Assembly: GCF_025526975.1 (NCBI RefSeq)
Contig: NW_026515682.1
Coordinates: 496,001-560,000, forward strand
Origin: Fimicolochytrium jonesii
Taxonomy: Eukaryota
Reading direction: 5' to 3'
Length of the DNA: 64,000 nt
Notes under the pieces: model-generated
Told to the model about the DNA's origin: nothing
What the model saw: only the letters and a program-made list of their open reading frames with translations
The model's database searches: none
Position numbers and translations under genes: made by a program
Part shown: piece after piece, positions 1 through 27,934 of the stretch
How the letters are laid out: each line of letters begins with the position of its first letter
Numbering within the stretch: the first letter of the stretch is position 1

Positions 1-2872
1 ATGCGTCTGGTCTGTGGCCATCGCCAAACACCACCAAACGCACAATCAAGAGAAAATACTTGGTGCTTAGGACATCCTGATTGTGCACTTTCATCCGTAG
101 TGGTCGTCTTCCAGGAATCCCAAATGGCGTCCAGTCTTGGTTGATACATTCGGGGTTGGGGCAAACCACCAATCCATGGACGTATTCCATTCTTCCCTTT
201 CTAGCTTGCCACGGCCGAGACAACAGCCGACGTCGGATGTTTTTCTTCACACGGCCGTGGCAGTCAGGGCACACGGACGACGTTCGATACTCATCCAGCA
301 AGTAGCATGGAATGCCGTTTCTCGCAAAGAGTGTGCGGAATCTGTTCCATGATGAGTTAGCATAATAGAATACATAGTAGATACCACCAATCTTGGTCAC
401 TCACCCCTTGGTCTTCGATGACTCCTGAAAGCGCATTGTTTTCCCGGCATCGCTCCAATCACCCAAGATGACCGAAAAATGCTTTCCATACCGGCGTCGC
501 ATGTTCTTAATGACCTTGCTCTCAGACTTTTGCCGCAGTGAGAACGCCTTGAATCTGCGAGCTACGTGAATCTCATCCTGGTAAAACTCATCCAGGGCGG
601 GATCTGGGATATTGATGGATGTCAGCCCATGTATTACCAAATTTGAAAATCAAAGTTGAAGTTGAACATCATACCCGCATGTTCGTAACCCACAATGAAC
701 GCTGAGAACGCCTTGATGTTCATGCTCTTGTGCGATGGAATATGTGATTCCATCTCAGCGATGCCGGCATTGATCTTTTGCTCTCTCATGTCTCTTTGAA
801 AGTACTGAGACTTTGTCTCGACCGCCCGTTGATTGGATGCGTATCTGGTATGGGGTGGTGCATTGTGAGAACGCTGCAACGGAATGTCGCCGCAACGGGG
901 ATGGTGGGGATAGGGGCGGTGGGAGCTGCAGCAAGAGACGGGGGGATGGTGGGCGGAGACGGGGGGCTGGCGGGCGGAGACTGGGGGCTGGCGGGCAGAG
1001 ACGGGGGGCTGGCGGGCGGAGACGGGGGGGGGGGGGGGGAGGTAGCGGGGACAGCAGTGCAGTAGTAATCAACTGAAACGTACCGAAATGGCCGCTCCTT
1101 CTTGATGTCTTGACAGAACAAGAGGTCACGCTTGCCCGGATCAATGCTGACGATGTTTGGAGCCTCCCTTAGTTCGGCGATGTGGTGCTCAAAATACAGC
1201 TGTTAGACTTCTTCCTGCATTTGGGCTTTGCTGCGCTTCCGGGCGCGATGGCCGTACTTGAGCCCTGGCTTCTTGAAGTGGATGGTAGCGGAATACCCGT
1301 TTGTGCTGATTGACCCATCAAATTTGAGACCAAGCTTCTTTCGATGCTTGCAGACCTTGTCCTAAAATCCGTCATTCAGCAAGGTAATCAGATTGAATCA
1401 AGCACAGAAGGGTACAGACTTAACTTACATTCACATTGAGAAACTGCCCCCGCATCTCCTGCTTGCGTTCATCGGTGAATTTCCCCATGCGATGGTGGCC
1501 CAAGGCCAGGATATGAGTGGTTAGGATCTTTGTGTCGATCCGAACAGATGACTGGATTCGAGATTTGCGCAGCGGGATAGCGAAAAACAGCCGCATTCCA
1601 AGGCGCTCATAGAGGCGTGAGAGCTCACAATAGGCACCTGTGATGATGCAGGTGCGGACTATGATTAGACAAAAGAGGAAGCAGCGGGGGGGGGGGGGGG
1701 GGCGTAAATATACAGGATGTAACTCACCTAAATATGGCATTACGTCCACCGCAAGGCTGTACGCAAGCGCTTCATCCTGGGGAGGAAACAGAGCCCATAA
1801 CTTGTCGAGGACGGTCCGCTCAAGTCGTGTGAGGTGCGCAAACTCTTCTTGGGTTGGAAACTCTTCAAACGTCGCAAATTTTGTAAAGTGACGGACCCGC
1901 TGATAATAGTGTTGCCGCTGCGCTCGGTTGACTCCAGCTCTAAGGGGATGCAGTGCGACTTGCTTCAAACCAAGCCTTTCGTTGACGTAGCGCAGAAACA
2001 TTTGCATGAAATGCTCTTATACGTTAACTTTGAGGTTTGTGAGGATGCTCGTAGCCGTGTACGCTGCGGTCTGTTGTCAATACCGCATGCGGATGGGGGC
2101 GAATCCGTGAACATCACAGTAGTCTTGAACCCATGGATGCAACTCTCGCGCGATCACCGGATTGCCGTTGTAGCCTGGATTGTTGAGCAGCTCAAACATC
2201 ACACTGATGTGCTTGTCAGTGATGTCCGGGAAATCACGTAGAGGATGATCAGCAGCGGTGGGCAGACGTGGTAGTCAGGACATTGTTATGGGAAATATTA
2301 TGGGAAATATACAGTGTACCTCAAAAACTCACCAAGGTAGTGCTTGAGAAAGAAGGTCGTGTGGCGCGCAGGGACTGAACATTGCCGATGAATGTTGTCA
2401 GGCGCTCCCTTTGAGCTTGATTCTGATTATGGATGACTTGGTGAAGGGAAACCTTGGTGCCGGCATGTGTTTGCGGGCGGGGTCGTTGAACTGGTGGTGG
2501 TGGCGGGGGTTCAAGCACCAGGGATCCACCCGGTGTGCTGGGAAAACGGAAAGGGATGGGCGCGGGGAGGTTCGGTGGGCGCTGCAGACCCCCGTCCACG
2601 GGTGAAAGCCCTCGCTGCTGCTGGTGCTGTTGCCCGTCTTCATCGCCGGAGCTCTCGCTAACCATGTCTGGAATTGCTTGGGGCAAGTGACGCTGGACAG
2701 AAGGTGGGAAATCGAATCACGGGGGTTGCATTGGTGTCTGCACAGCGGTTGGCGGATTTATGGGCAGCCGCGGGATAACCGGAGCAACCTTCCTCCTCTT
2801 CCGCCGTGGTGTGGTTGCTCTCGTAAAGAAGCCACCCCACCGGTGCCCCTGGAGCGCCTTGTGTGATGACAT
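1..2872 (-). pseudogene. Fanzor1 (TnpB-like RNA-guided RuvC nuclease) copy A, 7 exons, degenerate; 3' end runs just off the window start
   Basis: Spliced translation gives PRRKRRKV NLS, LFFAIPLRKSRIQSSVRIDT, FDGSISTNGYSATIHF, RuvC-I IVSIDPGKRDLL, FRYASNQRAVETK, VILGDWS, RuvC-II LLDEYRTSSVCPDC and RuvC-III HNQDVLSTK. Lesions: CGA>TGA at 2717-2719, 1-bp deletion near 2375, TAA at 1203-1205. Confidence 0.9.
941..1038. repeat. ~21-bp GC-rich tandem repeat in Fanzor intron 4
   Basis: About four GGGGGCTGGCGGGCGGAGAC-like units. The same repeat occurs in copy B at about 26876-26947 as the reverse complement. Confidence 0.85.
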
Positions 2873-3153: not shown

Positions 3154-3311
3154 GCGCTAACGTGGCTTCACAGGCGTTAGCACCCACCCTGCGCTAACGT
3201 GGCTTCACAGGCGTTAGCACCCACCCCGCGCTAACGTGGCTTCACAGGCGTTCGCACCCACCCTGCGCTAACGTGGCTTCACAGGCGTTAGCACCCACCC
3301 CGCGCTAACGT
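3154..3311. repeat. 37-bp tandem array of hairpin-forming units (4 copies plus a partial)
   Basis: GCGCTAACGTGGCTTCACAGGCGTTAGCACCCACCCY starts at 3154, 3191, 3228 and 3265, with a partial at 3302. Each unit has an internal inverted repeat GCTAACG...CGTTAGC. Confidence 0.95.
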
Positions 3312-3614: not shown

Positions 3615-4195
3615 CTATTCGTCTTCATCTGGGAGGCCGTATTTCCGGATGGCCGCGGCCGTCGCCAGGGGCAGCGTCACAACAGCCGTGTGGCAACTGC
3701 CGCCGGACGTGTCAAGCACCGCCGTTCCGTGGAGCTTGTCAGACATCCACGTCCACATGCAGTCGGGCTGCAGCACCAAGCAGAAGCCTTGCTCTGGCAG
3801 CGCAAATATCCACTCGCCGACGACGGTTTCGGAGCGGCGGCGTAGCCTGCCACCCATTGCGTGCATAGCTTGCGGGCCTGAAGCTCCTCCGGAAGCTCCT
3901 CCTTGGGGGTCAGCTTCCATATGGCGCGGCCTGTGTGCGGGTTCAGCTCGCTGGCTACGCCGTCGTCCAACCGGTCGGAGTGAACGACCACTTGATAGTT
4001 GGTCGTCGCGAACAGCGGGGCAAACTCATCGGAGTGTGGCCCGTACACCTTTGGCATGGACATCATCAGGTAGGCCGCCGCGGTGGGGTTGCGTTTGGTG
4101 AGCTCCTGCAGCAGTCGCTTGGTGAACGCCTTTTCCGTGGCGACGAGAAACTTTGCCAAAATGTCAGCCCCTCCTTTGATTGAATAGTGCCACGT
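3615..4195 (-). pseudogene. Tet/JBP-like 2OG-Fe(II) dioxygenase, C-terminal catalytic half (frameshifted, cut off by the Gypsy insertion)
   Basis: FATTNYQVVVHSDRLD (HxD at 3974-3982), then after a frameshift GEWIFALPEQGFCLVLQPDCMWTWMSDKLHGT (distal His about 3730). The frame continues across the ACGT target-site duplication into the 13056-13229 reading frame. Confidence 0.65.
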
Positions 4196-5267
4196 TGTGG
4201 TGGTGGCCGGCAGAAGCGTGTCAAATACGGGGTTACGGTCGGGTGTCGGGAAAAATAAGCTGCTGGTCTCTCAATAGCACAAGAAGAGATCTCAAGCGAG
4301 AGCGTTGTCTTGCCACCTTAATATCCAGGTGCTTTGAAAGGAGTCCTTCTTCTAATACGGGGTCAGGAATTACGGGCACGGGCACGAAATACGGAATCGG
4401 AATATCTGCGGGTTTGACTACAAAACAAAACAACGGGGTTATCCAGTCTCACTCTCAGCTCTTCTTACGAGATTCCTGAACTATCAAGTCCTCGGCGACG
4501 TCAGCAAAGTACAAGTCACGACACTCGGGGTCGTCTTGTCTAAGCTTTCCGGGTCTATGAGCGCGCCTTGAAGATCTATCAGAAACTGTAAGAAGTCGTC
4601 GGGAGTAAAGAAGTAGAAAGCTCTGTTGTTGATCGGGATCTGTGTTCTGCGTATCGTACAAAGGTCTGGGGAAAACGCGCGGGTTTTTATCTGGATTTTT
4701 CTAGGCTACGGGATTTTGTCGAAGTCCAAACTCTCTACTAGTCTTCTCTAGAGGATTTAGCTACGTCGGGGTCTTTTTCTCTTTTCCTGCGGCGGTCTAC
4801 GTAGTTTTTCCTTTTTCCATTTGCAATTTTGGCGCTGATACAGCCTTATCGCTAATCTTTTCTCGGGGTTTTCTGCAACGTTCGGCGTATATGGCCACCG
4901 GAAATTGGTTTTCTCGTTTCGAGGTGATTTCTTCAGCGTTTCGGGCATTGTGGGAGCTTCTGGTTGGTTAAGAGGCGGGTCGAGGGTGCTTTCATGTGTG
5001 CCATCCTCTCCTACGCCTACATTTTTGCATGTCAGTCGTATCCGAGGACAAAACATCGTCGAGAAGCAAGGTTTCGGTAAAGATAGTTGTATTTGGTAAT
5101 CATCGGAGTGTCGGGAACGCGAGTGTGTCGATTTATTGTCGGAAGTTTTGACGATATTTTGACGTTGTCATATAAAGGTGATTTCATTCGCTCGTCGAAG
5201 ATTCTAGGCGTATAATCAGCGTCAAAATTTTATCGATTTCATGCGCAGTTTGAAGCGCAATACTACT
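4196..5267 (-). repeat. 3' LTR
   Basis: Direct repeat of 11976-13051, roughly 35 differences by manual count. A purine tract (CAAAAGGAAAGA-like on the minus strand, about 5268-5281) lies just inside it. Confidence 0.95.
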
Positions 5268-5298
5268 TCTTTCCTTTTGTCAAATATTGATGTCCTCA

Positions 5299-8200
5299 TC
5301 AATTCTCGTCCGTAATTTTGTCTTCTTCGTCTGTTTCTTCTTCGTCTTCGGCGTTGCCATCGACTATCGGTTGTGTCTGGGTTCGAGTTCGAAATATCTT
5401 CAATCGGTCTCCGGCTACAGGTTTGCGTATCGTTGTCTGGTCTAATTCTTCGATATAATACGTGCCGTTGTTGTTGGGTTTGGTAATTCTGTAGGGTCCA
5501 AACCATTTGTTGTCAGTCTTGCCGGTTTGTTGAGTCAATAGCTTCGTGTTGTGCAGGAGAACTATGTCGCCGGGTTCAAAAGGTCGGTTTCTAATTCGGT
5601 GTCGTTTCTCCCAATACTTCTTGTTTGCTCTTTGGCTTGCGATTAGTCGCTCTGTCGCTAGCTTCAGGTCTTTGTCTCTGTATTGGAATGTTCAATGCGG
5701 TGTTGTAAAAATGTCTCGGTTGTCATGGGTTGTTGAAGATTTGGTACTGTCATCCATGTTTCATACGTAAGTTCGATAGGTAGTACGGCGTCTCTTCCAT
5801 AAATCAGGTAGAAGGGTGTAAACTTTGTCGTTCTTTTCGCAGTAACTCGATCTGCCCATAATGCAGCAGGGAATACGGTTGGCCATTCTCTCGGAGCCGG
5901 TGCGGTTCGAATAAGACGTTCGATAATCGGGGCATGTCCTCTTTCTACTAATCCATTCGCTTGCGGGTGATATGCAGTCGTAATTCGGTGTTTGACACCG
6001 TATCGCTCGGTAAGATGTTGTATCATTTTGTTGACGTTTTCGGGTCCACCATCGGATACTAGGTTTTTGATTGGTCCGTGTCAACAGAATACTTCTTCGT
6101 ATAAGAACGCGGCAATCTTGTCTGCAGTCAGCTTGCCTCTGATCATTCGTCCTTCAGGGTAACCGGTTGCGTCGTCTCGTAAAATCATTCCTCCTTCAAT
6201 TGCGTTCGTTCCTTTTGTGATAAATACAAAGTCTAGTCCACATTTCTGAAAGGGTCGTGTCGTTCGAATTTCGATGTAAAGCGGTTCAAATTCACGTCGC
6301 AGGTCTCTGAATTGGCAGTTGTGGCAGGATTGAACGTAGGCCTTTACTTCTTTGTACAGTCTTGACCAATAGTAGCGTTGTTGTATCTTTCGGAATGTCG
6401 CAAGGATGCCTCGATGTCCTCCTCCTTCCTTGCTTTTGTGCATGAATTGAATAATTTCTTCTTGGTCTTGTTCATTCCCGATAATTTGCAGGGGTGGTTT
6501 CAATCTCCGTTTCGTAAGAATGAATGATTGTCTTGTAGGGCGTATCGGGTACATCGGTTTCGGAATTTTCTTCGCTGGCTAGGGTACTTGTATCGCATTG
6601 GTACGGTCATATCGGTCAGGTATTGACGAATTTCATTCAAATCACTTTTCCATTCGGTTGTGGCTGAATTGACTCGTAATACATGCATTTCCGAATTGTC
6701 GGAGTCTTCGTTTTCAGTGTCGGTGTCATTGTCTGCTCGAGGTTTTCTCGAAAGTCCGTCCGCAGGGTTCTTCTCTCCTTTGATATGTTTGCTTTCAAAG
6801 TCGAATAGCATTAACTGCGCTACCCATCGCATTATGGTGCTGTCGGGGAATTCGGGTTTTTGTAGTAGTTGAATCAAGGGTTTGGCGTCAATCCAGAGCT
6901 TGAAACGTCTGCCCCAAACGTAAGTTCGTAGTTTGCGAACTCCTTTGTAGGCTCCAAGTAATTCAAGTTTGACTATCGGGTCGGTATTTCGTTGCTGTTC
7001 GGTAAACAATCCACTTTCGAATCGTATCGGTCTTTCTCTTCCTTCGGAATCAACTTGGGAGAGTATCGCTCCCCACGAAATGGGTGTAGCGTTGGTCGTA
7101 ATAATGAACGGGGGTGCGTCTTCTTCGTAGTTCGGCGCAGCTAATACCTTGGCAGCGACGAATTCTTGTTTTAACGTATCCATACAGGTCGGTTGCTTGG
7201 TCGTCCATTCGAATCGGGCGTTTTTCCTGTACAACTTGTACAGGGCGTCAGCTTTCTTAGCAAAGTCTTTGATCCAGGCGCGGTAGAATAGAATAAGTCC
7301 GAGGAATGCTTGTACTTTGGTCAGGTTCTGGCAAGGGGGCCAGCTGGTGATTTTTCGGATCTTCAATTGTTCGGGTGCCCTTCCGTCGTAACTGCAGACT
7401 ATGCCTGCGAAACTTGCTTTCGACATTCCCCAGCTTGATTTCTCGCCGGAAAACGTGAGTCCTGAATCGATCATAAGAATAAATACTTTCTTGCAGTCGT
7501 CCATGTGGTCTTGTACGAATTTGCGAATGTTAGGTTTCACGTGTGTCTCATCTCAGTATTTCGGTCCTTTGATGCCCGTATCATTGACATATACGCTGAC
7601 GATGTCGGGTTTGAGGGATTCGAAAACTTTGTTGACTACTCGATGAAATTGAGCTACTGAATTGATTCCTCCTTGAGGGAGTCGGGTAAGTTGGTATAAT
7701 CCAAACGGCGTAAGCATGGCTGTAAGGTCTCTTGATTCGGGGTGTAGGGGTACTTGATCATATCCGGAATACATGTCTGCCATAGACAAAATCGAACGTT
7801 CAGCAAATTCTTGAGCGAAAACTTCTGCGATCGGCGCACATCCGGCATCTCGTATTGTCACGCTGTTGAGCATTTGTACATCTTGTACGAATCGATAAGT
7901 TCCGTTCTTCTTGGGAACGAAGACCCAGGGGTTGCGGTAGGGTCCAAATGAAGGTTCCAACAGTCCTGCGTCTCGTTTCGTTCGGAGTAGGTCTGTCGCG
8001 ATCTTTGTCATCTGCGGGGGTAATCGGTGTGGTTTAACCATCCAGGGCGTATGCGGAATCGTATGAATCTTGACAGGTTCTTCAATGTGTGGCTTCAATG
8101 TTCCTCTTTTGCGGTCGTTGAAAGCAAAAGCCATGTCGTATTTGCGCAATAGTCATAAGAACGCAGCTCGTTCTTCGGTAGTCAAATCTTCTCCGAAAGT

Positions 8201-9969
8201 ACGCAAGTATTCTTGCCCATTGAATCGGTTTTGTCGTACGGTACTTCTGGCGGGTGTCTCGGTAATCGTAGGTCTGGGTAAAGCTTCAGGTCGAATGCCT
8301 CCGGGCAAGGGTTGTGCTAGGGGCTTGATCTTCTTTGCAATGGGCTTGAATTTTGTTTGTACTTGCACGGAGTATAATTCTTCTTCAGAATCGGAGTCGG
8401 AGTGGTATTCGGAATAGGTTCGTCGTCGACTGGGCTGATACAGTTCCTCATAATCGATGCTGTAATCACTGTCGGAATCTGAAACAAGACTTTCTTCTGT
8501 GTCGGATTCTTCGGATAGCATTGGCATATCGTCCATGATTGACTGCTGTCGGTAGGTAAACGCTTGTACATGGTACTCGATTGATTGTTCGTAAGCTTCT
8601 TCAACGTCGTGTTCTGAATCCTGTTTGTTGTCGGTCGTAATCGTGTCGGTAGGTTCTTCAGTGACGTTTCCTTTTGTCGAATCATATTCTTCGCTGTCCG
8701 TTTCGGTCTCATAGTACTGGATCATGTACGATCGCATTTGTAGGGGTCGTCGGAGTTTGTGTCTGTAAAGCATGTCGATATCTTCGAGGTATTCGGGATG
8801 AACCCATCGTTTTATGTCTTCAGGTACGTGTCCAGAGGTTAAATCCCATACTTGGCTGGTGCGGCGAGGAATTGGGCGCTTTTGGCAGAGTCTGGGTCAA
8901 ATATACGACACCATACACTTCCATCATCGCAATTCTTCTCTTCTAATCGGGTAATGCGGCGGTAAGGTCTTCCCAGAATCAAATCGTGACTGAGGGACTC
9001 AGAACTGACAAAACAGGCGGTCGAGCAACTGATGGATGCAATAGAAATCTTAATGTCGTAAACGACACCATTAATTCGACTGGGTCTCCCCCCCATATTC
9101 TTAAATGTAATGTTTGCAGGAATGGTCGTTTCGATCGGAATGTTTAGTGCTTCGAATAAACGTAGCGACATTAGATTCACTTCGGCTCCGGAATCTAATA
9201 GTGCAACGATCAAGTTCGAGTACTGGTTGATTTTAACGATCGCGTGCAGGCTGATTCCACTTAGAGTCGGGGTCTTATAATGTTCCGTTGCGATTTGTCG
9301 AAACATCATCACTTCTCCTTCATCCATCTCTTCAGACTGAATGTTGTACACGTTTTTGAGGTACTGCTGAGGGCGTGCTGAATGTTGAATGGCGTTCACG
9401 TTGAACGACATTTGGGCAACTCGTTCGTCACGGGCTTTCTTCTGCTTTTCTCGATCACTTTGTTTCTTGATTCTTTCTTCATACTGGTCGATTGGTACAC
9501 GGTGTTGTTGTAGATCGGATGCAACGGATTTTCGAAATTCGGGACTGAGAGTCATCAGTTCCGGGAAGGTGATGCCAATATTGACATTCTTGTAAAGTCT
9601 GCATTTGATCGCGTCAACGGGATGATTGCCTTGGTCTGCAATGTCGGGATAAAACTTGAACTTCGGCTGTCTTCGCTTGGGTCGTTCTTCATCCGTATCG
9701 GTCTCAGTATCAGTTTCCATCGGCGTAACAGGTCGATCGTCAGTTGGCCGGTCTCCAATCGGACGGCATTTCTTTTTCTCTCCTGGTTTCAGGATATCTC
9801 TTCCAGCGAATTTCTCGGTTGGCTCGGGTGGGTAATTTTCTCTTTCGGACGGTGTCATCTGCATCTTCCGTATCGGTTCCAGCTCTGGCGGGTGCTTGTC
9901 CACTTTGGGGTCGGTTTCCGTCAGCTGGATCAGCAACAGCAGGTCGCTTCGGATCGCGGGCTTGGGCAA
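5299..9969 (-). pseudogene. Gypsy pol: aspartic protease, reverse transcriptase, RNase H, integrase (fragmented)
   Basis: ALLDSGAEVNLM (protease); DMYSGYDQVPL, RLPQG and YVND (RT, mutated YVDD); RNase H ...HIKGEKNPADGLSR; integrase H-x-GHRG...CHNC, TAYHPQANGLVER and WFGPY. Confidence 0.93.
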
Positions 9970-10318
9970 TAGTCGTATCGAAATGAATGGGATCGTCCCA
10001 GTTCGTAATGTTCCAAATCGTATAGGTCAAGTCTTCTGCATGTTCTTCAAGATAATCTCGGATTTCGGATGAGCGTTCGGAGGTTTCACGGGTCTTTTTC
10101 TTGCCGTCATTTCGCAGCATAAACGAATTGATTGAATGACTGTAGGATCTTTGATTGGCGGAAGTGTTGCGATTGCGAAGTACGGCGGCTTTGGCATCTT
10201 CGAAAACTTTCTTAATCCCTCCTCGTCCGATGTTCAAAGGGATTTCTTGTCCGGGTACTCCAATGGTCGTATTGTGAGGGTACGCAATTCGTCCTTGTCC
10301 GTTAAGAACTAGTTCTTC

Positions 10319-11588
10319 TCAGTTCTGAACCTCAGAAAAGTCTCTGCAAAATCTGCGCTGGTGTCCTTCTTGATCACAATAAACACATCGCAAGGGTCGA
10401 ACATTCGCATTGCCGGTACTCGTTGAGCTACTGCCTTGCGAATCGTTCGCAGGCGGAAGTCGGGTCGCAGGAGTCAAGCTCTGCAGGATTCGGTTCTGGC
10501 TAGTCTGCAACTGGGCCATTCGTTCGGTCATTTTGCGTACTGCTCGGTCAAGTTTACTCTCGGTCTGCAATACTTGTCCTTGTACGAAGTTCAGCTGGTC
10601 ACTAACGGTCGGGTTGGTAATACCGGGGATCGTAAGAATCGGTTTCTGAACTGTCATAGATCGCGCGTCGGAATCGGGTTGCTTGATAACTGTCGTAAGT
10701 TGAGAAAGCGCAGCAACTAGTTGCTTCGGTGATGGCTTCCATAACTCGGCTAACGGAGGGTAACTGAGTTGGTCGCAAGTGGGTTCCACGTTCAGCAGCG
10801 AGTCTTCTGGCTTGTTGGAGAACTCGTTTGTCGAAGCCGGGTTCGTCTTTCCACGGGATCAGAAGCAAATTGATCTTTTCTTTGTCAGCGACCCCATCGA
10901 TTCTTGCATATCCATAGGCCATTTCGTTGATAAATTCTGCAACGTTGGCAGTGTTCCGTTTGACATGGTCTCGTTGACTGAGAGCCCATTGTTCGAGGTT
11001 GTTGAAAGTATGGCGAGTTTGAAAGGAATCAAAGTTCAATATCACCTCTTCAGTAAACGTCACCCAAGTTGGTTCTTCTCTCCATCGAGTATATTTGGTT
11101 ATGTCAAGCGATTGGAAACTAGGCATACTACAAAGCAGCGGTCGAAGGCTTGGTTGCGAATACTGGATGAATGTCTGCATACATCGTTTGTGTTTCAATT
11201 CCACGATTTGTCGCTCCTCCTGATTAGCAATAGCAGGATCTCGCGGGTTGTACGGACTGCGAAGTGTGGTGTGCAGAGGGTTGAGGATGATGCTCGGGTA
11301 CTGGGCGTCAGGTTCATATCCAGCGTCGTTAAGTTGAGCATAGAATAGGTCGAGTTTCTCTTGTACATCTCGTCCATCGAACTCTATAGCTCCAGGTTGT
11401 CCTATCATAGGTAAACCTTTTGAACTAGCAACTCAAAGTAGCATAGCGAACTGGTTGGCAGTCACAGGAAACATCGGGTTGTTTGCCCCATAGTCAGGAG
11501 GCGGGTTAGGCGGATTGTTCAGGTTCGGGTTGGGATCTGGATTCGGGTCAGGATTCGAATTATCGGGCGGCGGATTAGCGTCTGCCAT
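10319..11588 (-). pseudogene. Gypsy gag with CCHC zinc knuckle (interrupted)
   Basis: ATG at 11588, Pro/Asn-rich N-terminus, early stop, FDGRDV motif and CVYCDQEGHQRRFC knuckle at about 10345-10390. Confidence 0.85.
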
Positions 11589-11950
11589 TTTGTCAAGAAA
11601 GTTGCTATTACTTGAAAAATGCGAAGATGTCTAAAATAGACGGTCGAAGATTGTCTCTAAAAAGGAGTCGGTTGTCGGAGTACGAAAGTGCTGACGTCAA
11701 AGAATGGCGCAGCAGAATGTACGTGTGAAAACGCGCTTTTGCATGTCGAAACAAGGGGTAGGCTGTCGAAAAGTCGGGCGGCGATGCGCTGTCGAGCTGT
11801 CAAAAAGCAGCTGTTTTTGGTAGATAGCGAGTCGAATAACTAGCGTATCGATTTTCGTCGGTTTTTGTTGTACGGTAGGTACAAAGTCTATACGGATAAG
11901 CAGGTTTAAAGGATGTCTGAGCGATAGAATCTCTTTTCGTCGAAGAAAAG

Positions 11951-11970
11951 GACTCCTGGTAGGATCGCCA
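11951..11970 (-). other. Primer-binding site, probably for tRNA-Arg(ACG)
   Basis: TGGCGATCCTACCAGGAGTC lies 5 nt inside the 5' LTR. Its complement GACTCCTGGTAGGATCGCCA resembles eukaryotic tRNA-Arg(ACG) 3' ends (from memory). Confidence 0.75.
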
Positions 11971-11975
11971 GTAAA

Positions 11976-13051
11976 TGTGGTGGTGGCCGGCAGAAGCGAG
12001 GGTCTGTCAAATACGGGGTTACGGTCGGGTGTCGGGAAAAATAAGCTGCTGGTCTCTCAATAGCACAAGAAGAGATCTCAAGCGAGAGCGTTGTCTTGCC
12101 ACCTTAATATCCAGGTGCTTTGAAAGGAGTCCTTCTTCTAATACGGGGTCAGGAATTACGGGCACGGGCACAAAATACGGAATCGGAATATCTGCGGGTT
12201 TGACTACAAAACAAAACAACGGGGTTATCCAGTCTCACTCTCAGCTCTTATTACGAGATTCCTGAACTATCAAGTCCTCGGCGACGTCAGCAAAGTACAA
12301 GTCACGACACTCGGGGTCGTCTTGTCCTCTCCGGGTCTATGAGCGCGCCTTGAAAGTCTATCAGAAACTGAAAGAAGTCGTCGGGAGTAGAGAAGTAGAA
12401 AGCTCTGTTGTTGATCGGGATCTGTGTTCTGCGTATCGTACAAAGGTCTGGGGAAAACAGGCGGGTTTTTATCTGGATTTTTCTAGGCTACGGGATTTTG
12501 TCGAAGTCCAAACTCTCTACTAGTCTTCTCTAGAGGATTTAGCTACGTTGGGGTCTTTTTCTCTTTTCCTGCGGCGGTCTACGTAGTTTTTCCTTTTTCC
12601 ATTTGCAATTTTGGCGCTGATACAGCCTTATTGCTAATCTTTTCTCGGGGTTTTCTGCAACGTTCGGCGTATACGGCCACCGGAAATTGGTTTTCTCGTT
12701 TTGCAGGTGATTTCTTCAGCGTTTCGGGCATCGTTGGAGCTTCTGGTTGGTTGAGAGTCGGGTCGGGGGTGCTTTCATGTGTGACATCCTCTCCTACGCC
12801 TACATTTTTCGCATGTCAGTCGTATCCGAGGACAAAACATCGTTGAGAAGCAAGGTTTTGCTAAAGATAGTTGTATTTGGTGATCGTCGGAGTGTCGGGA
12901 ACGCAAGTGTGTCAATTTATTGTCGGAAGTTTTGACGGTATTTTGACGTTGTTGTATAAAGGTGATTTCATTCGCTCGTCGAAGATTCTAGGCGTATAAT
13001 CAGCGTCGAAATATTATCGATTTCATGCGCAGTTTGAAGCGCAATACTACA
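11976..13051 (-). repeat. 5' LTR
   Basis: TGTAGTA...CACCACA termini on the minus strand; direct repeat of 4196-5267. Confidence 0.95.
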
Positions 13052-13743
13052 ACGTCCCCCTGGCATATCCCGAGTGCTTGACGCCACGACAAAGCCCGGC
13101 GGCGTGCATTGTGCCCCTTGAAGCCTTCCATCGAACCAGAGTGGGCCGGGATCCACAGGACTCGACGATGAGCCGCAGCCGCAGGTCATGTTCGCGACGA
13201 CCCGCGCTATTGTACGAGATTGTGGCCACAAGGGCGCCGTGCTCGTCGCGGATGTAGATGTCCGCCCCCCCCCCCCCCCCCCCCCCCCCCGGGGTTCAAT
13301 TCGCTCAAGCCCATCCAGGCCCCTCGCCTTCTCCGGCCTCTTCCTAAACCCCGCATAGACCATCTTGCCCTGCCAGCCATCGCACGAGGCGGGCGTTGGC
13401 ACCACGATGTGAACAGCCGGGCGGCTACCGAGGGCCGGGGGTCGACGGACAAGTTGGCCGCGGTAAGACCGCCATCGGTGATCGCAGCGATGATGTCGGA
13501 CTGGAGCCCAATGTGGTGCTTGGCGCGCTTCTTGTGGGGAAGGGACCGCATTGGCCTATTGGTCCACCAGCCCCAAAGGGTGGAATTGTCTTGCTTGATC
13601 TTCTTTGAAAAAAGGCCAATGGCCTTGCCCTTGTCTTCTAGGCTAGCGTCCCGGGCGGCAAGGCCGGAGCCTACCAGCAGCGGATACAAAAAGGCCACCG
13701 TGTCGCCGAAGATAGCTGTGGCGCGGCCCTCGCCCATGCCCAT
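13052..13743 (-). pseudogene. Tet/JBP-like dioxygenase, N-terminal half
   Basis: GKMVYAGFRK (13339-13370) resembles the G-x-M-x-x-G-W-R-K motif of fungal Tet-like oxygenases. The frame ...HSGYARGT joins WHYSIKGGADILAKFLV... across the retroelement. Frameshifts at about 13400 and in the C-run at 13265-13290. Confidence 0.55.
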
Positions 13744-13860
13744 CAGAAGAGCCTTGACCGTGGTGGGGGGCGACGGGGGCGTGGCCTGCAGCGCGGTGGA
13801 GGGGAAGGGGAGGGGGAAGGTGTTAGCGGCTCAGGCCGCGCGATCGCAATCACCGACGCG

Positions 13861-14096
13861 GCACAGCAGCATGCCCAGGCAGCGCATCCCATACCGGTCG
13901 ACCCCCCACAAGCGGCGGTCGTGCTCAAGATCAGCGCACAGCAGCATGCCCAGACAGCGCACCCCATGACGGTTGACCTCCCGCAAGCGGCGGTCGTGCT
14001 CAACATGGGCTGCGGGATCGGCGCATGGCAAACACGTCCAGACAGCGCACCCCATGCCGGTCAACCTCCCGCAAGCGGCGGTTGTGCTCAGCATGG
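13861..14096 (+). repeat. ~75-bp tandem repeat x3 (25-aa coding-like unit AQQHAQTAHPMxVDLPQAAVVL)
   Basis: GCACAGCAGCATGCCCAG...CAAGCGGCGGTCGTGCTCAA units at 13861, 13936 and about 14022. Confidence 0.85.
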
Positions 14097-14199
14097 ACTG
14101 CAAGCCCAGGCGGTCAACACCCGGCAGAGACGCCCACGGCTACACAGCAGCCACTCACCTCGTCAGCGCTGAGCATTCTCGGAGCGTGCTCTGTGTGAG

Positions 14200-15728
14200 T
14201 TGCCGGGCTTGAGCTGGAAGGAAGTAGGCGCCGGCCGGGGGGTACAAAGCCACAGGCGGCCCCGAGGCCTCAAAGCTGCTCGACGAAACCATGCACCTAT
14301 TCAGAAAGCTCGCGCTCAAAGGCCAATGGCGGGAAAGGGGGCAAGAAGGCGATCAGGCAAAACGTGGCAACTTTGGGGAAGGCAGCGGACCGCATATGAG
14401 AAGGCTACAGGGGCGTCGCAGACGACACTTACGCGCATGCAGGAAGCGGCAAAGCAGGTATGAGTGGGGTGAGTGGACGTTGCCGCAGTGCTGCGCTAAC
14501 GCGGGGTATCTGCGCAGGGGAGACGAGAGGCAAAACGACGGGCACCCAAACCCAAGCTGGCCGCACCGAAACTGGCCAAACGGGAGGAGTACTTGCTCGA
14601 CAACACCGAGGCGCGCGAGCACTGGCAGGTGGCGCCGCTGACGAGCATCGGATACTATGCAAAGGGTGTCCCAAAGTCATGGGCGGAGGTGGAGAGGGGG
14701 AAGGGCCTGCCGAAGCCTGCCTCAGTGGTGCCCTATGCGCGCGCCACCGGCCACGGCGAGATGCCCGGCTTCTGGACCAGCCGCCACAGGCTGTGATGGA
14801 CGAGTGCGCACGCCTGGCCCGGTATGGCGATGTCGGCCCCTTCACTCTGCCGCCGACCGTGCTTGGCCTCTACCCAAACCTGAAGGAGGCGGGGAGCGGG
14901 TGGATGGGCGCGCCTGACATGGCCAGCCGAGTGGGGAACATGGGCGGCAGGCCGAAGAGCGCAAGCAATTGGCTGTCGCTGACCACGATATACACGTACG
15001 TCGACACCCTGGCGAAGTCGGCGGCCGTGACCCGGAGGGAGACAGGGCAACCCCTACGACGCATGTGGACGGCGAGGCGCTGCTGATTGGGGAGGGGTGT
15101 TTGGCTCCCGCATACATTCACCCGGTAAGTGCCGTACATTCTCGGGGCACTGCCGCACATCCCGCGCTAACGAGCCCCCTCCACAGTAGCAGCAGAACAC
15201 GACGTCGCGCACTTCATCCTCCACAGAAACCGCAACTATTTCGCCTCGTACTGGTATGGCCGGACGGATGGCCGGCATTACTTTTACGACTCCATGTTTG
15301 GCAAGCGATCGGGGAAAATGAACGCGGCCGTATGGACCGAGGACATTCGCTGGCGCATCGTGGGCAGGGTGCGGTACATGATCCACTGTGGGTTTATGCC
15401 GGCAGGTGGGCCCACGTCCCCCCCCATCTATGTGTCGCACCCCCGCCAGCAGGACATGGACTCGTGCGGGGTTCTGTTGTGCTGCATGGCCAGCTGGATT
15501 ATTCACGGCACGGTGGGGGAGCGCAATGCAAAGGAGGCGCTTGTGCTCCCGGCCACGTATTCCACCAGTCAGGTCAACGTTGCGCGCTGGACGATCATGT
15601 GGACCATTCTGCACGGGAAAGCCTTGAACATCACGGCCGTGGGCAAGGATCGAGCGGTAAGACCGCGCGCCCCTGTTGTTGATGGATGGCAAATGCTAAC
15701 CCCCCCCCCCCCCCCCCGCCCCTGCTGA
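14200..15728 (+). pseudogene. Ulp1/C48 family SUMO-peptidase-like gene, multi-exon and degenerate
   Basis: NWLSLTTIYTYVDTL, HYFYDSM (Asp at 15288) and PRQQDMDSCGVL (Gln, Cys at 15465). The expected catalytic His position reads NYF (TAT at 15237, possibly CAT>TAT). GT-AG introns at 14458-14517 and about 15125-15186. Frameshifts present; start uncertain. Confidence 0.7.
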
Positions 15729-16173
15729 CAGGGCACGGAAGGCTGGGCAGCCCCTATGGGCGACGTGACCAGCTGGGTGGCCGGTGACGGAAACCACCGG
15801 CGGCCACAAGTGCAGCGACCTGCGCGGCAGAGGTGAAAACCGCAGAAGCCGTGGCAGGGAGCGCTGGCGGCAGGGAGCCGTCGGTCAAAGTGGTCGGCGG
15901 TGATGGTTGAGAGCTCGCCGTCCATCAAGGAAAGAAGAGGGAGAGGGATCCGTCGGCGGAGGCGGTGAGCGCGAAGAGGGTGTAGACGGGAAAGGGCGGC
16001 TGGGCAATAGCGTGACATATCCCACGCTATCGCGGCCACCATATTTAATACGGCACCGCTGAGTCACCCACGGATGCGCCACATTGATTTGTATGAAACG
16101 ATTAATGAAGCTATTCTGAAACGATAGCTTGCCGCCGCAAGATTTTTACTATGTAACAGATTTGCGAGGCGGT

Positions 16174-16306
16174 AAACGCTGTATTCTAAATTGAATCGAG
16201 ACCCTAACCCTAACCCTAACCCTAACCCTAACCCTACTTTGTAAACGTTGTATTCTCACTTGAATCAGGACTCTAACCATAACCCTAACCCTAAATTGAA
16301 TCAAGA
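16174..16306 (+). repeat. Interstitial telomeric (CCCTAA)n repeats within a duplicated ~69-bp unit
   Basis: (CCCTAA)5CCCTA at 16202-16236 and a degenerate tract at 16271-16294, each preceded by AAACGYTGTATTCT..TTGAATC. Confidence 0.9.
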
Positions 16307-22516: not shown

Positions 22517-22790
22517 TGTGGTGTGGAGGTTTTTCGGGGCGTTAGCCTGGCGTATGCGGCAGTGGATGAGACCCCGGCGCATCTACTAAAGAACGAGTCT
22601 ACATATAGCGCACATCTGTTAGAAGGATGTAGGGTTATTTGTGTGGTTTGATACCATTGGTTTGTACATCCTCATTGTTTACTCTGATCCATGTCCGCGA
22701 CGTCCGTGTCCCCCCACGTGACCGCATATTCCCTATTCCTTCTTACCTTCCCGCTGCCCTCTGATTCCTTCTTACCTTCCTACCACATCT

Positions 22791-23395
22791 GCGCCTGGAA
22801 TAGGGGCAGTCTCGCGGTACGCTCTCTCGCCTTCCGCAATCGCTTGGGGCAGCTTACCTCATAAACAAACACATCTCCTAACAGTGTTTTCACAATGGTG
22901 GACAGTACTTTTTCCTTAGGGTCCGCGCACTAGAGGCGCGAACCGGACTTTTTCTTCAGGGTCCTTTCGAACGGGTATAAAAGCAAACCAGTACTGACAT
23001 TCCCTCGCAGGCATGCGCCATCGCCCGAGACAGCTCGGAATAGGAGCAGCCTCGCGATACGCTACCTTCTTGACTCGCGATCGCCCGAGACAGCTCGGAA
23101 TAGGAGCAGCCTCGCGATTCGTTTGCCATTCTACGTCTGCCATTCTACGTCTGCCATTCTACGTCACAAACCCACTCCCATGCTCCCGCGATGACCTATG
23201 TACTCCGCCCCAACTAAGTCACATACTCCATTCACCAGGCAAATCACCATGACAGCATCAACGTCAAAGCCCCGTTCCGCAATCGCTTGGGGCAGCCCGG
23301 AATAGGGGCAGTCTCGCGATTCGCTTCACTCTTTACGACTTCCGCAATCGCTTGGGGCAGCCCGGAATAGGGGCAGTCTCGCGATTTGCTCTCTC
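22791..23395 (+). repeat. Dispersed/tandem ~48-bp hairpin-like repeats (period 60-65) in the Fanzor leader
   Basis: CGCAATCGCTTGGGGCAGCCCGGAATAGGGGCAGTCTCGCGATT and variants at about 22794, 23017, 23077, 23276 and 23341. Also (TGCCATTCTACGTC)x3 at 23124-23166. Confidence 0.85.
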
Positions 23396-23780
23396 GACTT
23401 CCTCAAGGCATCAGCATCCAATATGTTGCTCTAGCAATACGTTGGTCTAGCGGCACTACGCTCACCGGTGATGAAGCCACAACCATGATGGAACTGCTTT
23501 CTGACGAAGACTTCCATTACTTCACGCCGCCCACCTCCATCTCTGCTGAGATCCGATGATTATGGGTGAAAAAATGCGTGCAATTCATCAATCTCCCGAG
23601 AAGCGCATATTGATTCCCACATTTACGTAGCTTAGCTTTTTGCAAATCACTGTGGTTGGACTGCGTTTGGACCAACGTTGACATACTGTACTTTGCTGCT
23701 ATAGCCGTCACTCGCCTCCGGCGGCTCCCAATGTGTGAAGGGGAATAAAGTAACGAGTTCCACAATCAACCCCAGAGCTG

Positions 23781-23823
23781 CCCCACATCCTTTACACGCG
23801 TGTAAAAAACGTGGGGATCCCCA
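23781..23823. promoter_or_regulatory. Palindromic site upstream of the Fanzor gene
   Basis: CCCCAC-ATCC-TTTACACGCGTGTAAA-AAAC-GTGGGG, overlapping TGGGGATCCCCA. Identical in copy C at 61782-61824. Function unknown. Confidence 0.5.
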
Positions 23824-24096
23824 CTCTACTCTTCCTCACTCTTCGCGCTCCTCACGCTCTTGATTGCACCTCGTCATGGCCCCCAATTACATACCAACCC
23901 TCCTTCCCACCCCCCTTCCTTCCCAACGCAATTGTGAGCAGTAAGCATTCCCGGTTTCACCTTCAACCACCACCAGGTAACAACCGCAATTCCTCACCGT
24001 TCTCAGCCTCATTACCACAGCACTGACGCGAGTTCTTTGACACACAGCCATCACGGCAATCACCTGCAACACCTGTCTCGGCACAGCACAGCCATC

Positions 24097-27000
24097 ATGT
24101 CATCACACCAGGCGCTCCAGGGGCACCTGTGGGGTGGCTTCTTTGCCGGAGTTACCACACCACGGCGGAAGAGGAGGAAGGTTGCTCCGGTTACCCCTCG
24201 GTTACGTCTGCCAACCGCTGTGCAGCCAACCTCTGTGCAGACACCATTGCAACCCCCACGATTCGAGCTCCCACCCTCTGTCCATCGCCACTTGCCCCAA
24301 GCAGTTGCAGACATGGTTGGCGAGAGTTCCGGCGATGAAGACGGGCAGCAGCAGCAGCAACAGCAGCGAGGGCTTTCACCCGCGGACAGGGGCCTGCAGC
24401 GTCCGTTGAACCTCCCTGCTCCCATCCCTTTCCTTTTTCCCAGCACCCCGGGTGGATCCCTGGTGCTTGAACCCCCGTCACCACCACCCGCTCAACGACC
24501 CCGGCAGACACATGCAGGCACCAAGGTTTCGCTTCACCGAATCCATAATCAAAATCAAGTTCAAAGGGAGCGCCTGACAACATTCATCGGCAACGTTCAC
24601 ATCCTTGCGCGCCACACCACCTTCTTTCTCAAGTACTACCTTGGTGAGGTTTTGAGGTACACTGTATATTTCCCATGATATTTCCCATAACAATGTCCTG
24701 ACTACTACGTCTGCCCACCGCAGCTGATCATCCTCTACGCGATTTCCCGGACATCACTGACAAGCACATCAGTGTGATGTTTGAGCTGCTCAACAATCCA
24801 GGCTACAACGGCAATCCGGTCATCGCGCAAGAGTTGCGTCCATGGGTTCAAGACTACTGTGATGTTCACGGATTCGCCCCCATACGCATGCGAAATTGCC
24901 AACAGACGGCAGCATACACGGCTCAGAGCATCCTCACAAACCTCAAAGTCAACGTACAAGAGCATTTCATGCAAATGCTTCTGCGCTACATCAACGAAAG
25001 GATTGGTTTGAAGCAAGTCGCACTGCATCTCCGGAGAGCCAGAGTCAACCGAGCGCAGCGGAGACAGTATTATCAGCGGGTCCGTCACTTTACAAAATTT
25101 GCGACGTTTGAAGAGTTTCCAACCGAAGAGGACTTTGCGCGCCTCACACGACTTGAACGGACTGTCCTTGACGAGTCATGGGCTCTGTTTCCTGCCCAGG
25201 ATGAGCCGCTTGCATACAGCCTTGCGGTGGACGCAATGCCATATTTAGGTGAGTTGCATCCTGTATATTCACCCCCCCCCCCCCCCCCCAGGCTCGTGCG
25301 TGGCTGTGCAGTGCCTCGCTTGGTATGCCAACCTGGCCGAGTGGCTGCCCGCCGGGACCCCGGCCGACGTGGTTTGCGATGCGCTGTTGGCGCTGGGCGC
25401 CCGCACGCTTGGCTCCCGCGGCCCCCCCACCCCCCCCCCCGGCCTCGACGACGCCGCCAGTGCGCGCACAGCGGGCCCGGGGCGCGACCGATGCTCTTGC
25501 CCACCGCCATGGCGTCAACGTAACCAGCGCCGCCGACGTGTTCGCCGCGCGCCGAACATAACGCGAAACCCCCCCCCCCCCCCCCTGCGGTGCCCTCTTT
25601 TGTCTAATCATGGTCTGCACCTGCCTCGCCTCATCACAGGTGCCCACTGTGAACTCTCGCGCCTCTATGAGCGCCGTGGAATGCGCCTGTTCTCCGCTAT
25701 CCCGCTGCGCAAATCTCGAATTCAGTCATCTGTTTGGATCGACACGCTGATCCTAGGCACTCATATCCTGGATGTTGGCCGACGTCGCATGGGGAAACTC
25801 ACTGATGAACGCAAGCAGGAGCTGTGGGGGCAGTTTCTCAATGTGAATGTAAGTCTGTATCCTTTGATGAAGAGGCGCGCGAAGGTCGGGTGGATGGCGA
25901 GACAGCCGGTGAGGATGCAGTCGATGTAGGATTGCGGGATCGGTGTGCACGGGGTCGGTGTGTGCGGGGCTGCCGGTCCCGTGCACGCGCTTGTGCGGGA
26001 CGACGGGGGCTGGAGCTCGTACACCCACACGACAACGGGCGCGGCGGGGGATGTGGTTGTGGTTTCAAACGGGTGTGAGATGGTGGGTGAAGATGGCGGG
26101 GTGTTGAAGTGGAGGATCTCGATGTCCTCCACTCTGACCGTTCCGCGGACGTAGTCCTTCTCGCGCTCGTTGGGTGGGTGTGCGGACGGTGCGGAGGCGC
26201 GAGTGCGGGTTGATGAGGGTGCGGCTCTTATTTCAATCACCTTGCTGAATGACGCATTATAGGACAAGGTCTTCAAACATCGAAAGAAGCTTGGTCTCAA
26301 GTTTGATGGGTCAATTAGCACCAACGGGTATTCCGTTACCATCCACTTCAAGAAGCCAGGGCTAAAGTATGGGCATCGGGCCCGGAAGCGCAGCAAGGCC
26401 CAAATGCGGGAAGAAGTCAAGCAGTTGTATTTTGAGCACCACATCGCCGAACTACGGGAGGCTCCAAACATTGTCTGCATTGAACCGGGCAAGCGTGACC
26501 TCCTGTTCTGTCGAGATATTGAGAAGGAGCGGCCATTTCGGTAAGTTTCAGTTGATTACTACTGCCCTGCTGTCCCCATCCCCCCCCCCCTTCCCCAACC
26601 CTCGACTTTGCGGAAGATGGTGCGGAGGTGTTTGCGGACGTTGACTTGGAAGGGGTGGTTCCCCTGTTTGCGTACACGGGCAACGAATCTGGGCGAGAAT
26701 CCTTGCGGATCTGGGCGAGGAGTTCGTTGATAGAGTTGGACGAGCACGGAGCTGTCGATGGGAACGCCGCCAATGACGGAGCAGCCGCGGTTGGTTTGCT
26801 TGTCGCCGTCGCGCGTCATATCGCTCGTCGCGTGGCCCATGTTGATGACCTGCATGACGGTGTCGAGGCCAACCCTGTCTCCGCCCCCAGCCCCCCGTCT
26901 CCGCCCCCCAGCCCCCCGTCTCCGCCCGCCAGCCCCCCGCCCGCCCGGAGAGACATGACAGAGCGGAAGATCAATGCCGGCGTTGCTGAGATGGAATCAC

Positions 27001-27769
27001 ATATTCCATCGCACAAGAGCATGAACATCGAGGCGTTCTCAGCGTTCCTTGTGGATTACAAACATGCGGGTATGATGTTCTACTTCAACTTTAATTTTCA
27101 ATATTTGGTAATACATGGGCTGACATCCATCCATATCCCAGATCCCGCCCTGGATGAATTTTACCGGGATGAGATTCACGTCGCTCGCAGGTTCAAGGCG
27201 TTCTCACTGCGGCAAAAGTCTGAGAGCAAGCTCATTAAGAATTTGCGACGCCGGTATGGAAAGCATTTTTCGGTCATCTTGGGTGATTGGAGCGATGCTG
27301 GGAAAACGATGCGCTTTCAGGAGTCATCAAAGACCAAGGGGTGAGTGACCATCATTGGTAGTACCTACGATGTATTATAATATGCTAACTCATCATGGAA
27401 ATCAGATTCCGCACACTCTTTGCAAGAAACAGCATTCCATGCTACTTGCTAGATGAGTATCGAACGTCGTCCGTGTGCCCAGACTGCCACGGCCGTGTGA
27501 AGAAAAACATCCAACAGCGGCTGTCATCTTGGCCGTGGCAAGCTAGAAAGGGAAGAATGGAATACGTCCATGGATTGGTGGGTTGCCCCAACCCCGAATG
27601 TATCAACCAAGACTGGACGCCATTTGGGATTCCTGGAAGACAACCACTACGACTACGAATGAAAGCGCACAATCGGGACGTCCTAAGCACCAAGAATTTC
27701 CTCTCGATTGTGCGTTCGGTGGTGTTTGGCGATGGCCGCAGACCAGACGCATTCTCCCGTAACCGGTAG
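24097..27769 (+). CDS. Fanzor1 copy B, 7 exons; no stops in exons, but RuvC-I D>E and the start of exon 5 is deleted
   Basis: Exons 24097-24643, 24724-25248, 25640-25848, 26263-26540, about 26933-27069, 27142-27340 and 27406-27769, with consistent phases. Motifs: ILTNLKVNVQEHF, IVCIEPGKRDLL, VILGDWS, LLDEYRTSSVCPDC, CPNPEC, HNRDVLSTKNF. Confidence 0.9.
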
Positions 27770-27934
27770 TCTAGAATTTTCACCCCATTCAATGTTCCGT
27801 GGTGGTTATCTGCCATCCACATCATTGTACCTCTGCCGGAGGCATCGCCGATGATGGCAACTTGTAAACAGAACCATGACAGCCGGCGAAGATACGGGCC
27901 ATCTCAAATATTTACATTTCCAAGCTACGGTTAC
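27759..27934 (+). ncRNA. Candidate Fanzor omegaRNA scaffold
   Basis: Overlaps the stop codon and extends 3'. Nested stems: 27759-27776 with 27918-27934, GTGGTT/AACCAT, TGCCATC (27811) with GATGGCA (27853), and CCTC..GAGG and CATC..GATG hairpins. Confidence 0.5.

Follow-up and report, generated by a model that had tools for sequence, protein, structure and literature searches.

Three copies of a gene for Fanzor1, an RNA-guided nuclease, lie in a stretch of 64,000 nucleotides from the chytrid Fimicolochytrium jonesii (contig NW_026515682.1, positions 496,001 to 560,000 of the forward strand; this whole stretch is called the window). The genes belong to a real Fanzor1 family which was recently amplified and is now decaying. 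In our reading, which we put at roughly two in three (0.68), these broken six-intron copies were propagated as the right-end cassette of a DNA transposon, some copies of which carry a predicted TET/JBP dioxygenase. We also lean, less firmly, towards a wider proposal: a chytrid transposon would join a Fanzor1 homing nuclease with a TET/JBP demethylase of its own, and its Fanzor-omegaRNA cassette would swap 5' modules and vary at the segment that reads the target-adjacent motif (TAM). The original prediction, made from the letters of the window without database searches, had described a multi-copy, six-intron Fanzor1 family here; that observation is confirmed, and its interpretation as a whole is partly supported.

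Three decaying Fanzor1 copies

Self-comparison of the window found three Fanzor1 copies in both orientations, as had been claimed, with matching blocks that are 85-93% identical:

Copy A, 24097..27769, + strand: Fanzor1 with seven exons, broken (self-comparison, splicing).
Copy B, 1..2872, - strand (reads 2872 to 1): Fanzor1, broken; the window edge cuts it before the stop, and the 3' end lies outside.
Copy C, + strand, gene from 61910 to 64000, shared 5' blocks from 61052 (CCGCATA): two stops; the window edge cuts it in intron 4.

Spliced at GT..AG sites, copy A (exons 24097-24643, 24724-25248, 25640-25848, 26263-26540, (26951)-27069, 27142-27340 and 27406-27769) yields 747 amino acids (aa) without an internal stop. 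Residues in the following rows are numbered as in SpuFz1, the Fanzor1 protein of Spizellomyces punctatus:

A exon 1, 24097..24643, + strand: PRRKRRK motif resembling a nuclear localisation signal (NLS), Pro/Gln-rich extension of ~125 aa (predicted disordered), start of WED/REC.
A exon 2, 24724..25248, + strand: REC; sites matching Q129/Q130 (both kept), the R96 loop (without Arg) and N133 (Ala here).
A exon 3, 25640..25848, + strand: PLR..IDT motif and the site matching R291.
A exon 4, 26263..26540, + strand: STNG, the Tyr matching Y345, and RuvC-I (IEPGK in A).
A exon 5 remnant, intron 5 (27070-27141) and exon 6, 26951..27340, + strand: from splicing and comparison with B.
A exon 7, 27406..27769, + strand: RuvC-II Glu (DEY), CxxC and CxxxxC zinc ligands, RuvC-III (NRD), stop.

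A putative NLS, the SV40-type signal seen by the original prediction, is present in exon 1 of A as a sequence motif. Two other readings of copy A had to be corrected: its RuvC-I motif is IEPGK and not IDPGK (Asp stands in 35 of the 36 models that cover the site), and it has STNG instead of STDG. Among the window copies STDG occurs in C only; in the sibling models described below, STNG is found in 22 of 66 and STDG in 4 of 66.

The introns of A are of the GT-AG type, with branch-like motifs in four of the six. B has donors at the same six places, its introns measuring 80, 90, 67, 239, 71 and 63 nt, and the four donors visible in C agree as well. The shared introns thus hold as positions, six in A and B and four in C, but not as six intact introns, since the intron-4 acceptor of A is deleted and the intron-1 acceptor of B reads CTG.

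All three copies are damaged. In A, Glu replaces the first catalytic Asp, and together with the intron-4 acceptor the first 51 nt of exon 5 are lost (17 codons, including a conserved Y-x-x-N-Q-R motif). Besides its acceptor lesion, B suffers from a frameshift of 1 nt in exon 1 and from four in-frame stops, and its NRD has become NQD; C carries two stops and a 15-nt deletion. It had been suggested that a consensus of A, B and C repairs each lesion; this does not extend to exon 5 and beyond, a part visible in A and B only, which a three-copy majority therefore cannot settle.

Mismatches at first, second and third codon positions number 51/47/86 between A and B and 42/23/82 between A and C. This third-position excess is as expected if much of the divergence arose with the protein under selection. 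Compared with the three-copy majority, C-to-T changes are found at 34 of the 196 cytosines in CpG and at 35 of the 621 elsewhere (P 2e-6), i.e., a 3-fold CpG decay, which is the pattern that would be expected from CpG methylation of inserted copies.

Introns 2, 3 and 4 of A contain foreign DNA. Poly-C runs mark the start or the end of the inserts in introns 2 and 4; at the intron-4 run, A (26585-26870) and C (63720-64000) carry one and the same foreign coding-like fragment, and a fragment resembling the intron-2 insert is present in the annotated model P0027. The intron-3 insert (25860-26235, - strand) holds a 125-aa open piece without a Pfam or PDB match, which may resemble a glutamylcyclotransferase-like host gene.

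Identity of the nuclease

The best material for comparison is the annotated sibling P0022, which has 761 aa in an unbroken frame and carries every motif. Against SpuFz1 (chain 8gkh_P) it aligns in one collinear stretch, residues 129-759, with an E-value of 4.6e-149; the match spans all six splice junctions, and PpFz1 and GtFz1 follow as next matches. The AlphaFold model of P0022 has a mean predicted local distance difference test score (pLDDT) of 84 and is confident from about residue 130, with values below 50 at residues 1-56, 73-89 and 91-120. Foldseek with this model returns four SpuFz1 structures on top (TM 0.90-0.91 on the target), followed again by PpFz1 and GtFz1. For this sibling, alignment and predicted fold agree on a bilobed WED-REC-RuvC-zinc finger architecture with an enlarged REC. 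The sequence and structure search that the original prediction had proposed therefore bears out the assignment to Fanzor1.

Counted by hand along the alignment, D497, E656 and D731 of P0022 match D383, E541 and D606, the catalytic residues of SpuFz1 (Saito 2023, PMC10432273; Xu 2024, PMC11423790). Among covering sibling models, D497 is kept in 35 of 36, E656 in 52 of 52 and D731 in 48 of 48; A itself has Glu at the first position of the triad. The RuvC-II Glu lies beside the zinc finger, as is typical for Fanzor1, and a C4 zinc finger (CPDC and CPNPEC) is placed between RuvC-II and RuvC-III. The sites of the TAM contacts Q129, Q130 and Y345 are kept in all covering family models. By sequence and model, the protein is one more Fz1 orthologue and a close relative of SpuFz1, putatively a nuclease. 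The intact copy that had been sought is found in part: P0022 has an unbroken frame but carries Lys at a site where 49 of 52 models have Thr, and may thus be impaired.

The segment with the R291 equivalent (25760-25795 in the window) occurs in ALG, GLS and DVG types, with Arg, His, Gln or Cys at the contact (20 models), and A, B and C are all unlike one another in it. Pfam found nothing significant, either on single exons of A (best Cas12f1-like_TNB, E 0.09) or on 8 sibling models.

The family in F. jonesii and its relatives

With the last exon of A as query, 13 clusters were found, all of them 'uncharacterized' models of F. jonesii. The family comprises 66 Fanzor models with accessions, or ~58 loci once neighbours are merged, with a median identity of 91% to P0022. 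This copy number, which the original prediction had asked for, is a lower bound from cluster look-ups in the annotation, and some of the models are chimeric. The 203-aa model P0032 is 100% identical to the last exon of A over 120 aa and reads as A exons 5-7. The 3' part of A is thus annotated, and a family that had been called hidden turns out to be unrecognised rather than absent from the annotation.

In a tree of 31 proteins picked from the top matches, P0057 of Gaertneriomyces sp. is the sister of the family (support 100/99), apart from the Spizellomyces group; it is 52-53% identical to the family. Metagenomes yielded no related loci in a first scan and five Fz1 loci (L001-L005) in a second, and a scan of viral sequences gave two distant loci with 24-25% identity. 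The Fanzors of L002 (510-570) and L003 (~3695-3760) start with KITSFF or QKITDFF, which resembles a PCNA-binding motif; this start is missing from the F. jonesii family.

As the copies retain their introns, they spread as DNA, in good agreement with the recent DNA-level spread proposed originally. The six junction peptides are present in 12, 13, 20, 31, 42 and 42 of the 66 predicted models, many of which are partial. Spu-1, the element of SpuFz1, holds one open reading frame (ORF) of ~2.1 kb (PMC3627910, PMC10432273). In four metagenomic relatives (L001, L002, L003 and L005), GT-AG introns occupy different places, one or two per locus, close to residues 273 and 698, and none of the six sites seen in F. 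jonesii. The six introns are therefore likely separate gains, with loss in the relatives as the alternative. Gain of introns and of an NLS in Fanzors has already been published (PMC10530073; PMC3627910); the differing intron sets within one Fz1 clade would offer a clear example of a mobile gene that gained introns more than once.

A TET/JBP-like partner gene

A second multi-copy gene is located upstream of B on the same strand:

Partner gene of B, 3615..13848, - strand: TET/JBP-like, GC-rich, multi-copy, in five pieces.

An LTR (long terminal repeat) retrotransposon and frameshifts split the gene into the pieces 13848-13423, 13426-13289, 13265-13044, 4195-3830 and 3827-3618. It ends ~740 nt upstream of B, and the upstream region of B diverges from that of A ~18 nt before the ATG. 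Its relatives are 8 annotated F. jonesii models, six of which stand 1, 1, 1, 1, 2 and 3 accession numbers from a Fanzor model (the other two 24 and 81). With accession order as a proxy for gene order, the probability of this adjacency lies between 2e-8 and 9e-7 for the range of gene counts assumed, at ~3-6% expected per gene. The proxy fits the split Fanzor halves P0052/P0222 and P0056/P0225, which are numbered consecutively; in P0056/P0225 it is the N-terminal half that adjoins the partner, as in B. A linked partner is found at B and at least six other loci. The family had been thought to spread without a transposase of its own; the flanks of A, which are devoid of long frames, fit this, but the claim overlooks the linked TET/JBP-like gene.

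In the ESM Atlas, the partner scores 0.96 against a cluster in which 15% of the members carry PF20515 and 0.90 against a PF12851 Tet_JBP cluster (16%), and its ten best family matches all fall into one family or clan. What we take to be the iron triad HxD...H and the distal Arg were assigned by eye from the motifs of the TET/JBP family and PMC12730594. The partner models show the HxD (HSD) in 6 of 8, the distal His (LH) in 7 of 8 and the Arg in 5 of 8 cases; the window copy keeps HSD and LHG, and its likely 2-oxoglutarate Arg is changed to Cys. Judged by its sequence, we regard the gene as probably encoding a TET/JBP dioxygenase. The idea that it encodes a transposase was dropped on the motifs and the ESM Atlas matches.

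A 170-aa piece of the partner gave no usable match in the ESM Atlas. Relatives of the partner were not found in viral contigs, prokaryote genomes or phages. Tandem repeats of 37 bp and 75 bp flank the gene at 3143-3311 and 13861-14100.

Element ends and a candidate omegaRNA

Two non-coding regions around A bear on the extent of the element:

A 5' non-coding region, 22722..24096, + strand: blocks common with C from CCGCATA, ~65-bp repeats, identical 56-nt hairpin block at 23776-23831.
Candidate omegaRNA scaffold, 27792..27868, + strand: TTCC, stem-loop and A at 27795-27821, 26 nt past the stop of A.

Copy A sits between an APC2-like and a pinin-like gene, and its flanks hold no Met-ORF longer than 79 codons. 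The upstream blocks common to A (1.4 kb) and C (0.9 kb) begin at CCGCATA. CATA is the TAM and left-end motif of SpuFz1, and its occurrence at 22725-22728 is suggestive of the left end. Within these blocks, 56 nt are identical in A (23776-23831) and C (61777-61832) despite ~10% gene divergence and fold, with a z of -2.6, into a hairpin about an ACGCGT palindrome. The block could be a signal of the element end; alternatively, it may be a cell-cycle promoter box. The ~65-bp repeats occur upstream of both A and C.

The 5' layout of the SpuFz1 omegaRNA is TTCC (UUCC), a stem-loop and A (PMC10432273). A 16-letter motif derived from SpuFz1 is found at 27795 with one mismatch, the whole window having 2 matches against 0.48 expected. 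The module also lies 3' of the stop in both independent relatives with a 3' flank (L002 and L003/L004), as found with a search pattern devised after these sequences had been viewed. The candidate has no Rfam match. A resemblance of 27794-27823 to 3724-3753, the antisense of the LHG codons of the partner (24 of 30 nt identical, E 0.12), was discarded as likely chance after no protein match was found.

Proposed mechanism and its implications

In active ancestors, the spliced mRNA would give a nuclear nuclease that binds an omegaRNA made just past the stop codon, with the host DNA flanking the right end of the element as guide. Homing would begin with cleavage of the empty site by this nuclease, beside a CATA-like TAM, after which repair would restore a copy of the element there. 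A TET-like enzyme would oxidise methyl marks of the host and so maintain expression of the element. As for the transposase, it would either work in trans or be encoded beyond the window, in which no transposase domain was found; the 3' side of B lies beyond it. The same Fanzor cassette stands behind different 5' modules, TET-bearing in B, repeat-rich and non-coding in A and C. We infer omegaRNA-guided cutting and homing by homology, and the composite element with its demethylase-like enzyme from linkage.

If this is true, the Fanzor counters loss of the element and the TET/JBP demethylase counters silencing by the host; TET-bearing transposons would extend to chytrids. Fanzor elements would then carry an epigenetic counter-defence, and dependence of a Fanzor on self-demethylation becomes testable. 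Since the family departs naturally from SpuFz1 at TAM contacts (R96 loop, N133 and the variable segment of R291), its TAM is predicted to be akin to that of SpuFz1 yet not the same, an asset in tool building, and ~58 insertions dated by decay in one genome would make TAM, right end and homing scars directly readable. Introns and an NLS are known from Fanzors already; the new part is the likely Fanzor-plus-TET element. In the literature searched, which did not cover Repbase, the supplements of Kojima 2025, Iyer et al. 2014 and Yoon et al. 2023, we found neither a Fanzor-TET pairing nor a description of this family, and the name Fimicolochytrium is not present in the 9 searchable supplements of PMC10432273.

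Alternative explanations

Several findings weigh against a composite element of this kind, and they are given here together with the alternatives on which they bear. The first concern is the ends. The CATA case is one shared boundary, which in C lies beside a poly-C run. No inverted match of the 3' flank of A to the 5' flanks of A or C was found, a target duplication was not found for A, and the Spu-1 arrangement of 30-33 bp inverted repeats around a single ORF is not seen here. At the right end, the second match of the SpuFz1-derived motif, at 3725 inside the partner gene, tells us that this motif arises elsewhere too, the module pattern was devised after the fact, and the predicted fold of the 77-nt omegaRNA candidate does not surpass that of shuffled sequences (z -0.48).

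A Helitron-type rolling-circle carrier, as in the CRe-1/2/3 Fanzors of Chlamydomonas, would explain the missing inverted repeats along with the variable 5' modules, the captured intron fragments and the hairpins. In its favour are the three different 5' regions, the foreign DNA in introns 2-4 of A, which is partly common to C and P0027, and the 56-nt hairpin, which A and C carry in identical form. CRe elements, with 5-10 exons, integrate behind a tetranucleotide (PMC3627910), and TET-bearing Helitrons exist in fungi (PMC12730594). However, no Rep/helicase domain was found among the 73 long reading frames of the window, and Spu-1, the nearest characterised relative, has inverted repeats of 30-33 bp (PMC10432273, PMC3627910). 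We hold such a carrier to be possible rather than probable; it is compatible with our reading and is the main candidate beside a Spu-1-like one. A third type is hinted at by model P0061 from outside the window, in which a tyrosine-recombinase-like N-terminus (Phage_integrase, E 6e-4) is fused to a Fanzor piece: this is probably a chimeric annotation of nested elements, although a Crypton-type carrier is a possible reading. For a KDZ or other DDE carrier, the window shows no transposase domain, with the 3' side of B out of view.

The second concern is the partner. Most Fanzor loci, A and C included, have no detected partner, and ~7 of some 58 are known to be linked. The adjacency depends on accession order, and transposon-rich regions could raise its background. 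The partner has no match in Pfam, PHROG, NCBIfam or among PDB sequences, and its AlphaFold model reaches a pLDDT of 34, which renders its fold search uninformative. In a star-like, poorly resolved tree of 36 C-terminal pieces, the five TET-linked copies do not group together (5 changes, as against a mean of 4.8 on shuffling), so the linkage marks no subfamily that can be seen: movement of the cassette between 5' modules, loss of the partner from solo copies or a lack of power in the tree would each explain this. The alternative is a plain Spu-1-like, Fanzor-only, non-autonomous transposon, with the partner as a separate element nearby through one ancestral nesting or shared transposon-rich regions. 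In its favour, only ~7 loci are known to be linked, A and C adjoin host genes, the GC content of the partner is 63-65% as compared to 52% for the Fanzor exon, and Spu-1 has no transposase between its repeats (PMC10432273). Yet six of the eight partner models stand beside a Fanzor model, and seven fuller ones are 82-90% identical to each other, similar to the Fanzor median of 91%, as joint amplification would produce. One nesting event with joint spread afterwards would be a composite element anyway. We consider the Fanzor-only explanation unlikely.

The third concern is the nuclease itself, which might already have been dead or unable to open DNA while it spread, as a passive or binding-only passenger. 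Of 15 models, 13 lack an Arg at the R96 loop of SpuFz1; Ala stands at the N133 site in 19 of 20, Gly at the metal-ligand site N385 in 35 of 36, and the Arg of the R291 site is found in just 11 of 20. Removal of the equivalent loop Arg is reported to abolish the activity of GtFz1 (Xu et al., PMC11423790), and the intron-containing CrFNuc gave no cleavage when tested (PMC10530073). Against this stand the triad and zinc ligands, kept almost throughout, and the third-position mismatch excess; the relative P0066 also has Gly after the RuvC-I Asp-Pro, and TAM contacts reportedly differ from one Fz1 protein to another (PMC11423790). A dead passenger appears slightly less likely still than the Fanzor-only transposon. 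Least convincing is the notion that some lesions and intron inserts are assembly errors at poly-C runs and the real copies less decayed: poly-C borders the intron-2 and -4 inserts and the window has 20 C/G runs of at least 9 nt, but the intron-4 insert recurs at the same place in A and C with sequence differences, and stops and CpG-biased changes lie away from homopolymers.

Other features around copy B

Two further features lie in or near the partner gene:

LTR retrotransposon, 4194..13053, - strand: LTRs 96% identical; stop-broken frames for protease, reverse transcriptase and RNase H; ACGT on either side.
Broken GC-rich frame, 14230..15730, + strand: divergent from the TET-like gene.

The retrotransposon is inserted in the partner gene and is not part of the Fanzor element. 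The GC-rich frame found no support in Pfam, PHROG, NCBIfam or PDB; a motif in it (YFYDS..QQD..SCG) may give it the look of an Ulp1/C48 protease, and it possibly belongs to one element with B. Interstitial telomere-like repeats, (ACCCTA)6, are found in a short duplication at 16172-16300, where the GC-rich block has its edge; they may mark the left end of the element with partner and B.

Comparison with known systems

Fungal TET/JBP transposons were reportedly treated by Iyer et al. 2014. Kojima 2025 (PMC12730594) describes TET-bearing transposons of rusts, agarics and Pezizomycetes, in which the gene lies beside a transposase and an escape from methylation silencing is proposed. The F. jonesii partner is likewise a multi-copy TET/JBP-like gene with HxD..H in a mobile unit. 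Unlike in those transposons, it adjoins the gene of an RNA-guided nuclease, and a transposase was not found; in the main text of that paper the words 'Fanzor' and 'chytrid' do not occur.

With the CRe-1/2/3 (CrFNuc) Fanzors in the Helitron2 of Chlamydomonas (PMC3627910, PMC10530073), the family shares a multi-exon Fanzor1, spread as DNA, a non-autonomous nature and variable 5' parts. Host and carrier evidence differ, and no Helitron ends or helicase are seen in the window; the likeness drawn here is one of description. Among the metagenomic relatives, L002 and L003 share the omegaRNA-like module, and the flanks of L001-L005, unlike those of some F. jonesii copies, gave no TET-like match in 734 pieces.

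The closest counterpart is SpuFz1/Spu-1 of S. punctatus (PDB 8GKH, 9CEU-9CEZ; PMC10432273; PMC3627910). It differs in having one ORF instead of six introns; the F. jonesii family adds a disordered N-terminal extension of ~125 aa and mosaic 5' regions of 0.9-1.4 kb or longer, yielded no 30-nt inverted repeats at A and C, does not keep R96, N133 and N385, and is linked in some copies to a TET-like gene. Nevertheless, the two proteins are collinear and 41-43% identical in the structural alignment, with the same fold and triad. Both families are multi-copy in a spizellomycete chytrid, with an N-terminal basic motif and no transposase seen, and they have in common a UUCC-stem-loop module past the stop and CATA at the (candidate) left boundary.

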